Made by a program: the position numbers and the translations under genes
The notes under the pieces: generated by a model
Told to the model about the DNA's origin: nothing
The model's database searches: none
What the model saw: only the letters and a program-made list of their open reading frames with translations
Source: a virus
Length of the DNA stretch: 64,000 bases
Direction: 5' to 3' (one strand)
IMG/VR virus record: IMGVR_UViG_3300032053_000040
Span: 1 to 64,000 of that record
Part shown: positions 1,059 through 47,976 of the stretch, piece by piece
How positions within the stretch are numbered: the stretch's first letter is position 1
Layout of the letters: each line of letters opens with the position of its first letter

Positions 1059-2270
1059 TTGAGAACTGCCTACAAGTTCAGGATCTACCCTAACAAGCAC
1101 CAGGAGATTATCTTAGGTATAACCTTGGAAACTTGTAGGCATCTTTGGAATATGGCTTTGGCAGACAGAAAGAATATGTGGGAGCAAGAGGGCATCACAC
1201 GATCTTATGAGGACCAGGCATCCATCTTAACCCTAGAGAGACAGAATAATCCATATCTAAAGGGTGTCCTAGCGCAGGCGGAACAAGATGTTCTTCGAAG
1301 ACTCAATAAGGCAATGGATAACTTCTTCAGACGTGTTCGAGAAGGGGCTAGGAAGAAAGGTTATCCGAGATTCAAAGGATATGGCCGATACACTTCATTT
1401 ACATATCCGCAATCTGGTTTCAAGCTTAACGGTACCAGATTAATGTTATCCAAACTACCAGGAACAATCCGAGCTTTTGTTCACAGGCAGATTGAAGGAA
1501 AGATCAAGACTTGTACTCTTAAACGAGATGGTCAGGGAACTTGGTTCATAATATTTGTGACTGAGCAGGAGGATCCCGTCAAACTGGAACCCAAGACAGC
1601 CCTCGGAGTGGATCTTGGAATATCACATGCAATAACCACGTCTGAAGGGCAGACCTTCGATTACCCAAAATATTACATTCAAGCTGAGAAAAAGAACCGG
1701 GCTGCTGAAAAATCTTTGCACCGCAAGAAACTTGGTTCCAAGAATCGCAAGAAGGCCCAGATCAGGCTTAATAGGATTAACAAACGTGTAACCAACTTGC
1801 GAGACGAATTCCAGCACCAAGTCTCTAGGAGGTTGGTTAATTCAGCAGACTTAATTGTATTTGAGGATCTGAATATTTCAGGTATGTTGAAAAATCATCA
1901 CCTAGCGAAACATATCCAAGATGTTTCATGGGGGAAACTAATACGCTTCACGGAAAGCAAGGCTGAAAGAGCTGGCAAAAGCGTGGTATTAGTTGATCCT
2001 AGAAACACAAGTCAAAGATGTTCGGATTGCGGCCAGATTGTACTTAAAGATCTATCTGAAAGGGTACATAGATGTCCCGTTTGTGGTCTGCGATTGGACC
2101 GCGACCATAACGCAGCCCTGAACATCCTAACCCTCGGACTGAGGGGGATTGCCTGTGGAGAACTGACCTCCGGCCTGGGCATGCGTCCAGGTAGGCGTCT
2201 GTTCATTGAAGCAGGAAGCCCTTCCCCTTTAGGGGCAAGGGAGGAAGTCACTAATTGTGCCATCTGGTAA
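1059..2270 (+). CDS. tnpB: RNA-guided endonuclease TnpB (IS200/IS605 family)
   Basis: AYKFRIYP N-terminus, GYPRFK, RuvC-I GVDLG, RuvC-II FEDL, zinc finger CSDC/CPVC, RuvC-III DRDHNAALNI; catalytic triad intact. Confidence 0.95.
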   Translation: MRTAYKFRIYPNKHQEIILGITLETCRHLWNMALADRKNMWEQEGITRSYEDQASILTLERQNNPYLKGVLAQAEQDVLRRLNKAMDNFFRRVREGARKKGYPRFKGYGRYTSFTYPQSGFKLNGTRLMLSKLPGTIRAFVHRQIEGKIKTCTLKRDGQGTWFIIFVTEQEDPVKLEPKTALGVDLGISHAITTSEGQTFDYPKYYIQAEKKNRAAEKSLHRKKLGSKNRKKAQIRLNRINKRVTNLRDEFQHQVSRRLVNSADLIVFEDLNISGMLKNHHLAKHIQDVSWGKLIRFTESKAERAGKSVVLVDPRNTSQRCSDCGQIVLKDLSERVHRCPVCGLRLDRDHNAALNILTLGLRGIACGELTSGLGMRPGRRLFIEAGSPSPLGAREEVTNCAIW

Positions 2271-40592: not shown

Positions 40593-40679
40593 GCCGCTTT
40601 AGCTCAGGTAGGCCAGAGCGCCCGGCCTGTACTGAATCAGGAAACCGGAAGATCGCCGGTTCGACTCCGGCAAGCGGCT
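40593..40679 (+). tRNA. tRNA-Thr(TGT) with a 12-nt intron (40632-40643)
   Basis: Acceptor GCCGCTT/AAGCGGC with U73, D arm GCTC/GAGC, T arm GCCGG-TTCGACT-CCGGC, CCTG/CAGG splice helix; C at position 33. Confidence 0.8.
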
Positions 40680-42681: not shown

Positions 42682-42966
42682 GTTCAGGCCAAGTCTGCTT
42701 TGATTTTCCCCAGTTGGTACACGATACTTAACACGGGAGCAAGGTTGGTGTCTCAACCGGGGGTCTCCATTATAAAAAAATATCTAGCGATCTCGTTTAA
42801 AATCGATTTTAAGACACTTTTTTTCATCCCCCCACCTCCAATTACCTTTTCTGATTTTTCATGGCCTTAAATCAGATTTAAATGAACCCATAGCGGCGAC
42901 TGTGTTTTAGCACCAAAACGCAACAGTTTCCATCTGATTCTGAGATAGAACGATCATCAGAAAACT

Positions 42967-43366
42967 GTCAACTACCCCACCCTGAAGGATGTGGCTTGCG
43001 ACTACGCAAAAAGTCGTGTCGCTATCGGCTGGTTGACTCCAGATGGCGAATCCTGGGATTATTCCGGCAGCCTGCTTTGGACGGAGAGCTTGACGCCGTT
43101 AAGTGGTTAAGTCGTTTCTGCTTAACTCGGCCCAGATCCTTGCGGATCTCATGCCTTCCAAAGCGATTGATTTCCGTTCACCGTCTCTCTTCGGTTGTCC
43201 GAAGTGCCCTACCTTCTTGCGAAGGCGGAAATCTGTTTCCTGGCCTGTTACCAGGGAACTATAGAGATATTATGCTTAATGGTATATTAAGGTATTTGCG
43301 GCAACGGTGGGGCCAATTCATCCCCGCCCTGAAGGATGGGGTCTTCTTGGACACGGAGAGAAAACT
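42967..43366 (-). mobile_element. Non-autonomous IS200/IS605 element (no ORF, omega-RNA-like)
   Basis: Subterminal hairpins gtcaactaccccaccctgaaggatgtggcttg and ccaattcatccccgccctgaaggatggggtcttcttgg; removing it restores the promoter seen at 47874. Confidence 0.8.
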
Positions 43367-43461
43367 ATAAATACCTACCATGTATATATATCATAACCAA
43401 TCATTTTATCCCCTAATAGGTTGGGGGATAGGTTGGCTAAAAAGGAGGCGAAAAGGCGATG
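43359..43461 (+). promoter_or_regulatory. 103-bp promoter-leader-RBS repeat, copy 1
   Basis: agaaaactataaatacc...aaggaggcgaaaaggcgATG; one mismatch versus copy 2. Confidence 0.9.
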
Positions 43462-47842: not shown

Positions 47843-47873
47843 CGATTTTGATTTCCGCTAGACGGCGATTCAC

Positions 47874-47976
47874 AGAAAACTATAAATACCTACCATGTAT
47901 ATATATCATAACCAATCATTTTATCCCCTAATAGGTGGGGGGATAGGTTGGCTAAAAAGGAGGCGAAAAGGCGATG
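47874..47976 (+). promoter_or_regulatory. 103-bp promoter-leader-RBS repeat, copy 2
   Basis: Near-identical to 43359-43461. Confidence 0.9.

Follow-up and report, generated by a model that had tools for sequence, protein, structure and literature searches.

Protein-less PATEs that encode omega-RNAs used in trans are known from Geobacillus stearothermophilus (Meers et al. 2023, PMC10055086). The element examined here, on the minus strand of a virus genome, has much in common with them: it is protein-less, bears TnpA hairpins at both its left (LE) and its right end (RE), appears to be mobilised in trans, and carries at its RE an RNA whose guide would lie outside the boundary and for which a TnpB would be needed from another element. 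What is new with respect to these bacterial PATEs is that the element is archaeal (Methanothrix) and virus-borne, that its RNA has an archaeal TATA promoter of its own, that a 5′ RNA domain of ~190 nt not derived from tnpB has been added, together with an optional RHH gene (DUF7557) present in half of the family, and that two classes are mixed, an LE/TAM of the TTTAT type being combined with the RE/scaffold of TTCAA-type TnpB ISs.

Other described systems share part of this organisation. As in the omega-RNAs (reRNAs) of ISDra2-type TnpBs, the RNA lies on the tnpB strand in the full-length relatives, has a 3′ scaffold stem beside the guide and ends at the RE boundary, with a TAM that is the transposon target motif; unlike them, it is homologous to the RE of the nearest TnpB IS over only ~107 nt and overlaps no tnpB ORF. 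IscB omega-RNAs are also bounded by the RE (PMC10055086), with which a weak HEARO match to the reverse complement of the RE module agrees. Reverse-complemented, this module (GUCAAC-hairpin...GUUGAC) is similar to the 5′ end of HEARO (RF02033); the 116-nt HEARO core, in contrast, is missing from the element RNA. The TldR repressors, which are nuclease-dead TnpBs, likewise combine a TnpB-type guide with a target that overlaps a promoter (PMC10705468), but no dead TnpB is adjacent to the element, the match to the promoter comes as a by-product of where the element inserted, and only 8-9 contiguous nucleotides are involved.

The stretch of DNA analysed as a whole, hereafter the window, is 64 kb long and forms the start of an IMG/VR virus record of 77,291 bp that has direct terminal repeats. 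A scan of 185,579 species genomes with the RE motif gave matches nearly confined to Methanothrix/Methanotrichaceae MAGs. Together with the element relatives found in Methanotrichaceae genomes, these matches point to Methanothrix as the host of the virus. Methanothrix is an acetoclastic methanogen of global importance. The analysis thus provides a clear host assignment for an uncultured 77-kb virus and documents IS200/IS605 traffic between host and virus.

The explanation that we favour, and hold to be probable with a good deal of reserve, is that of a Methanothrix PATE-type element with a structured RNA, trans-mobilised into a virus promoter, the RNA being likely an omega-type guide. Of two paralogous promoters, one would have received the element in its BRE-TATA, 3′ of TTTAT, through a host Y1 TnpA acting in trans. 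A self-promoted RNA would then be made, its 5′ two-thirds a family-specific domain and its 3′ third the RE/guide-RNA end of host TnpB ISs; because the 3′ module stops exactly at the transposon boundary, the transcript would enter the flank and thereby gain a 16-nt guide. The most likely role of such an RNA would be that of an omega-type guide loaded by a trans-supplied TnpB and serving transposon maintenance. After the insertion, a microhomology patch from an empty allele or paralogue may have restored the BRE and been fixed by selection. The features on which this explanation is built are collected in Table 1.

Table 1. Position of the element, its parts and related features. Positions refer to the window unless a locus handle precedes them; a slash marks an element boundary.
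Feature	Position	Strand	Basis or remark
Whole non-autonomous IS200/IS605 (PATE-type) element, 400 bp	42967..43366	-	Paralogous empty site at 47865-47882; conserved RE end; LE comparisons
Target/TAM motif TTTAT (ATAAA on +)	43367..43371	-	Part of the TATA box of promoter copy 1; TTTAT 5′ of the LE in family copies
LE-side repeat copy AGTTTTCT (AGAAAACT on +)	43359..43366	-	Acts as BRE of promoter copy 1
LE linker CTCCGTGT, then DNA-guide region CCAAGAAGA, adjoining the hairpin	43342..43358	-	Aligns with L124, L107 and L103/L104/L109
LE subterminal hairpin CCCCATCCTTCAGGGCGGGG	43322..43341	-	Near-identical CCCCATCCTTTAGGGTGGGG hairpins flank the host Y1 TnpA gene in L139
RNA gene TATA box TTAATATA, internal to the element	43283..43290	-	Conserved RNA start TAGTTCCC lies ~26 nt downstream
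RNA 5′ domain (~190 nt)	43076..43262	-	Covariation; family-specific; absent from TnpB elements; no Rfam match
RNA 3′ module = RE, end GGTAGTTGAC/	42967..43075	-	Common with host TnpB IS 3′ ends: 70-75 bits, model positions 194-310
RE (TnpA) hairpin CCACATCCTTCAGGGTGGGG	42975-42994	-	Similar to the LE hairpin, direct orientation
Predicted 16-nt guide AGTTTTCTGATGATCG (RE flank)	42951..42966	-	Predicted from position; first 8 nt are the RE-side repeat copy
TTTAT-adjacent partial guide match, promoter copy 2	47866..47886	-	9-nt seed, 13/16; only other site in the window
Viral promoter copy 1 (BRE-TATA + leader)	43359..43458	+	99% identity to copy 2
Gene driven by promoter copy 1	start 43459	+	Position
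Only TnpB of the virus	1059..2270	+	Pfam; 60% identity to L134 TnpB; no match to the RNA model R1
DUF7557 gene of relatives	L016:8259-8396; L018:5822-5962	-	Also L060, L098, L123, L124, L127

The initial annotation, made from the letters of the window, had assigned the element to the non-autonomous IS200/IS605 type and to the minus strand, and the hairpins, the TTTAT motif and the RE end bear this out. Imperfect subterminal hairpins are present at both ends on the same strand, as in PATEs, and a Y1 TnpA (PF01797) is encoded by all five host genomes tested, one of the genes being flanked by hairpins of the same kind. The RE end (GTTGAC/) does not vary among 19 relatives and the sequences beyond it are unrelated; this fixes the RE boundary at 42967, where it had first been placed. 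TTTAT proved to be the target motif of the family, with 17 of the 18 LE flanks carrying it; the window copy is inserted 3′ of TTTAT as well, but is also flanked by an 8-nt repeat. Pfam detected no transposase or nuclease gene inside the element, and the earlier description as ORF-less holds in substance: a plus-strand frame of 124 aa (42996-43370) is open in the window copy, but was rejected as a gene since it has no Pfam match and is unconserved, being broken in most relatives. The ends AGTTTTCTCTCC... and ...GGTAGTTGAC do not form terminal inverted repeats and the two hairpins point the same way, so that a classical MITE (TIR plus TSD) was rejected too.

Removal of 42967-43366 joins cagaaaact to ataaatacc, as had been pointed out, and reproduces the sequence of a second promoter at 47865-47882. 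Paralogy between the interrupted promoter (copy 1) and the second one (copy 2) extends over 95 nt downstream of the insertion point at 99% identity and over about 40 nt upstream of it at ~70% identity; as it is found on both sides, the promoter copy was there before the element that now interrupts it. Because its TTTAT target resembles a TATA box, the whole element family is predisposed to hit archaeal promoters. Searches for the empty site with exact promoter patterns in IMG/VR and JGI metagenomes found nothing beyond the virus lineage itself and one promoter of the copy-2 type (contig L133). In the Logan contigs of four sediment DNA runs, which bridge the LE junction, no empty-site joint was found, cover gaps in these contigs being uninformative.

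The duplicated promoter deserves a description of its own. It belongs to a promoter and leader cassette of ~95 nt (43367-43461 and 47882-47976, 99% identical) that contains a small hairpin as well as an SD sequence (AAGGAGG) and stands ahead of two different genes. In metagenome contig L133, a third version of the cassette has an unrelated gene joined to its upstream side, which indicates that the cassette moves among relatives.

The 8-nt sequence AGAAAACT does occur on both sides of the element, at 42959-42966 and 43359-43366, as originally observed. A BRE-like GAAAA precedes TATAAATA at four viral sites, in the layout GAAAA-N-TATAAATA, and in the interrupted promoter the BRE (AGAAAAC) and the TATA box (TATAAATA) are contiguous on the gene side under either LE boundary considered below. 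Given this 8-nt BRE copy between the canonical left end and the TATA box, promoter copy 1 is probably still functional, and the window copy would illustrate how a promoter can survive such an insertion. The statement that this family is not known to duplicate its target was confirmed, no duplication being found in 12 other complete copies, where the LE tip and the RE flank have at most one leading nucleotide in common. It had been argued that the restoration of the promoter would be coincidental if all copies ended in the same 8 nt; this is not so, since the 12 other copies differ, and the rebuilt BRE-TATA is hence specific to the window copy. The chance of 8/8 identity is about 1.5e-5 per copy. 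The repeat is neither a product of chance nor a feature of the family.

How far the element reaches on its left side depends on the comparison of left ends. Sibling LEs in L103, L104 and L109 read TTTAT/CTTTTGGGGTGTAGGGGCCAAGAAGA, that of L124 reads TTTTAT/CTCGTTGACCCAAGAAGA and that of L107 reads TTCAA/CTCCGTTGGGG. By homology with these, the canonical LE of the window copy would begin with CTC(TC)CGTGT, and AGTTTT(CT) would be extra. The core may therefore begin at 43358 or 43360, and the span 42967..43366 assumes TnpA cleavage at TTTAT/. Our reading of the LE comparison is that the target motif and the 4-mer adjoining the hairpin covary (GAAG with TTAT, GGAG/AGAG with TCAA/TCAC); this predicts TTAT for the window copy and thus favours cleavage at TTTAT/ over TTTCT/. 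The donor joints expected upon excision are TTTAT/AGTTTTCTGATG under boundary A and TTTATAGTTTTCT/AGTTTTCT under boundary B. Other copies had been proposed as a means to fix both the left end and the TAM: they settled the TAM as TTTAT, whereas the left end is still ambiguous by 6-8 nt. Pattern searches for siblings with the LE tip of the window copy gave matches at control level in genomes, and the 17-mer matches in IMG/VR were unrelated; the window itself holds no further copy of ACACGGAG+AGAAAACT. Among the possible origins of the repeat, we rank as most likely a patch through microhomology (CT), made after the insertion and copied from an empty allele or paralogue, then a flank captured when the element had previously hopped inside this promoter family, and chance last.

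The internal TATA-like sequence reported near 43285 is TTAATATA, on the minus strand, and an AT-rich TATA-like block lies at an equal distance in all relatives. We aligned 19 homologues (~70% identity) from this block to the RE. RNAalifold predicted 71 pairs, 42 of which show compensatory double changes, and G.U cells outnumber A.C cells by 79 to 22, an excess which identifies the minus strand as the RNA sense. With the calibrated covariance model built on this family (R1), the window copy scores 286.8 bits over 42947-43262 and keeps all invariant columns. The predicted RNA is ~295 nt long, and its 3′ module comprises a closing stem (GTCAAC/GTTGAC, the slash here separating the two strands of the stem) and two hairpins, including that of TnpA. 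From these substitutions, the RNA gene appears to be kept by selection across ~30% sequence divergence, and the element is in this respect not decaying junk. At the gathering score, a tRNA was the only Rfam match in the window. HEARO gave a weak plus-strand match at a permissive threshold (24.8 bits vs a gathering score of 83), which was rejected because it corresponds to the reverse complement of the RE module, lacks the core and lies on the strand opposite to that indicated by the G.U bias. Among the sequencing runs listed for the locus there was no RNA run. This work defines a new, strongly covarying archaeal RNA family, made of a TnpB-type guide-RNA end, a 5′ domain and its own promoter.

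Many host loci encode TnpB ORFs of 398-404 aa (Pfam OrfB_IS605 + Cas12f1-like_TNB), whose stop codon falls inside the RE motif, at 38 nt from a GTTGAC/ end like that of the element. The match of R1 to full-length TnpB ISs is limited to model positions 194-310 (~107 nt); residual tnpB coding similarity is likewise confined to the last ~100 nt of the RNA, none being found in the 5′ domain. Taken together, these limits identify the 3′ third of the RNA as the guide-RNA/RE end of a TnpB IS. The predicted RNA also lies at the RE, on the tnpB strand, ends at the boundary and is followed by a variable flank, as omega-RNAs do. In an omega-RNA, the TAM of the cognate TnpB is moreover the motif flanking the LE; here, the full-length TnpB ISs with the same RE are all flanked by TTCAA, not TTTAT. 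RNAalifold applied to the 3′ ends of full-length TnpB ISs met too little variation for a comparison of architectures.

An autonomous host IS605 with both TnpA and TnpB (L134) does use TTTAT, and the only TnpB of the virus, 60% identical to that of L134, is probably of the TTTAT type as judged from this relationship. The RE of this class (...GGAAGTCAC/) gives no R1 match beyond the TnpA hairpin, and no DNA similarity was detected between the element and the viral tnpB region. In the viral gene, an RE hairpin (2219-2241) and the RE end ...GGAAGTCAC/ (at 2251) lie inside the 3′ end and no LE hairpin is present upstream; this locus looks like a one-ended, immobilised copy. TnpB ISs that would pair TTTAT with a GTTGAC RE were rejected, the extra loci being a truncated RNA copy and a solo RE. 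Among the elements compared, no TnpB agrees with the element in scaffold as well as in TAM, so that the term omega-RNA designates an analogy with partial homology rather than a demonstrated identity. The initial annotation, in which the element was an omega-RNA gene, is hence partly supported: the 3′ ~107 nt do match the RE of TnpB elements, but the 5′ ~190 nt have no match there, the TAM of the matching ISs is TTCAA and the scaffold of the viral TnpB is unrelated. We regard the analogy as well founded. If the RNA is loaded by a TnpB, the family would represent a natural archaeal uncoupling of guide from nuclease, and its scaffold extension would be of interest for TnpB engineering.

The predicted guide matches promoter copy 2 as the initial annotation had described, next to TTTAT at 13 of 16 nt with a 9-nt seed (47866-47886), the mismatches being at guide positions 10-12, and it matches promoter copy 1 next to TTTAT over 8 nt. 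The copy-2 match is the sole such site in the window, where none is expected by chance. As evidence for targeting, however, it is weakened, since insertion into a duplicated promoter trivially produces such a match. A guide of 10 nt lets TnpB bind DNA without cleavage (PMC13507860), and a 9-nt seed could at most give binding of this kind. The first 8 nt of the RE flank also include a T4 run that could end archaeal transcription before the full guide.

The covarying 5′ domain of ~190 nt, strongly conserved and absent from TnpB ISs, bears on the weightiest alternative to a TnpB guide, which we consider unlikely though worth keeping in mind: a functional RNA of another kind would hitch-hike on IS200/IS605 ends, the RE being kept only for TnpA. 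Such an RNA might for instance be the partner or regulator of the DUF7557 RHH-type protein, as in an addiction or regulatory module, and the divergent DUF7557/VapB-like gene in about half of the relatives, the conflict between TAM and scaffold and the low copy number (1-3 per genome) are consistent with this. Homology with TnpB ISs nevertheless reaches ~70 nt past the TnpA hairpin into an omega-RNA-type closing stem, the predicted RNA stops right at the boundary in the manner of omega-RNAs, and the window copy and six relatives without DUF7557 still keep the RNA; these observations speak against such an RNA. The same retention of structure in the window copy, with its high model score and intact invariant columns, and the massive compensatory change across the family make it very improbable that the element is a dead, decaying MITE without function and the 8-nt repeat a coincidence. 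The LE tip of the window copy is atypical, with no sibling found, and no sign of recent movement is seen within the virus, as a dead element would have it, but the 8/8 identity is too rare to be expected by chance and is absent from the 12 other copies.

Use of the RNA by the virus itself, in trans with a TTTAT-recognising TnpB, is an improbable reading, whether as a TldR-like regulation of the two BRE-TATA regions or as a homing drive that cleaves element-free co-infecting relatives. The TTTAT-flanked matches over both promoter copies, the possibility of binding with a short guide, the resemblance of the viral TnpB to the TTTAT class and the maintenance of the element in two diverged viruses would fit with it. 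Against this, the RE and scaffold of the viral TnpB are unrelated to the element RNA, the guide-promoter match arises automatically upon insertion, and the block that is 100% identical between the two viruses is 2 kb long and gives no sign of selection on the element. A regulatory or weapon reading is possible but unsupported. Only slightly less doubtful is a broader proposal: a stand-alone, promoter-driven guide-RNA gene, with an omega-type 3′ scaffold, a new 190-nt domain and an ancestral DUF7557 RHH partner, might have borrowed IS200/IS605 ends and program a trans TnpB against TTTAT-flanked BRE-TATA sequences, either as a drive into element-free co-infecting relatives or as a means of tuning two early promoters by binding without cleavage. 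The trans-mobilised Methanothrix PATE remains our preferred explanation.

Related copies occur in other IMG/VR contigs, where they were recovered via the hairpin and RE motifs, and in host genomes. About 17 of 105 Methanotrichaceae genomes contain the full RNA, with 1-3 copies each, and 60 of the 105 have RE-module matches; outside the Methanotrichaceae, no full RNA was found in a sample of the class. About half of the family carries, between the LE and the RNA promoter, an antisense gene of 45-46 aa (DUF7557, with a weak VapB-antitoxin match in Pfam), which is absent from the window copy and six other relatives that keep the RNA; a literature search for DUF7557 returned nothing.

Some host loci show more complex arrangements. 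At L007:2020-3340 (and also in L011), IS200/IS605 insertions are nested: an inverted RE accompanied by a TnpB remnant breaks up an LE, the remnant being split in its turn by an element with DUF7557 and RNA, and a further solo RE then follows. Seven host loci (L050, L062, L070, L080, L084, L085 and L100) harbour a second family of short protein-less elements, with left ends TTCAA/CTCGTTGCCCAAGGAGT and the right end GTTGAC as in the window element. They look like ordinary PATEs of TTCAA-class TnpB ISs.

A second virus, G001, is 96-99% identical to the window virus in mosaic blocks and has the same occupied site, as do sediment-metagenome contigs. The insertion lies within a block of 2,065 nt at 100% identity between the two viruses; the identity of the element was rejected as a signal of selection, since a block of ~2 kb is uninformative on selection acting on the element itself. 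Protein-anchored searches for related viruses recovered G001 alone, and blastn against the INPHARED phage collection gave no match. G001 also has a second copy of the RE of the element, ~90% similar, at a contig end that cuts it off (L044, G001:C1:27064-27157); its flank is AATATTGTTAATAAG, and the corresponding place in the window has no copy. Finally, ARAGORN and Rfam agree in calling a tRNA-Ala(GGC) at 40593-40679 of the window. An 87-nt tRNA-Ala is unusually long, and this one may thus contain an intron or extension.
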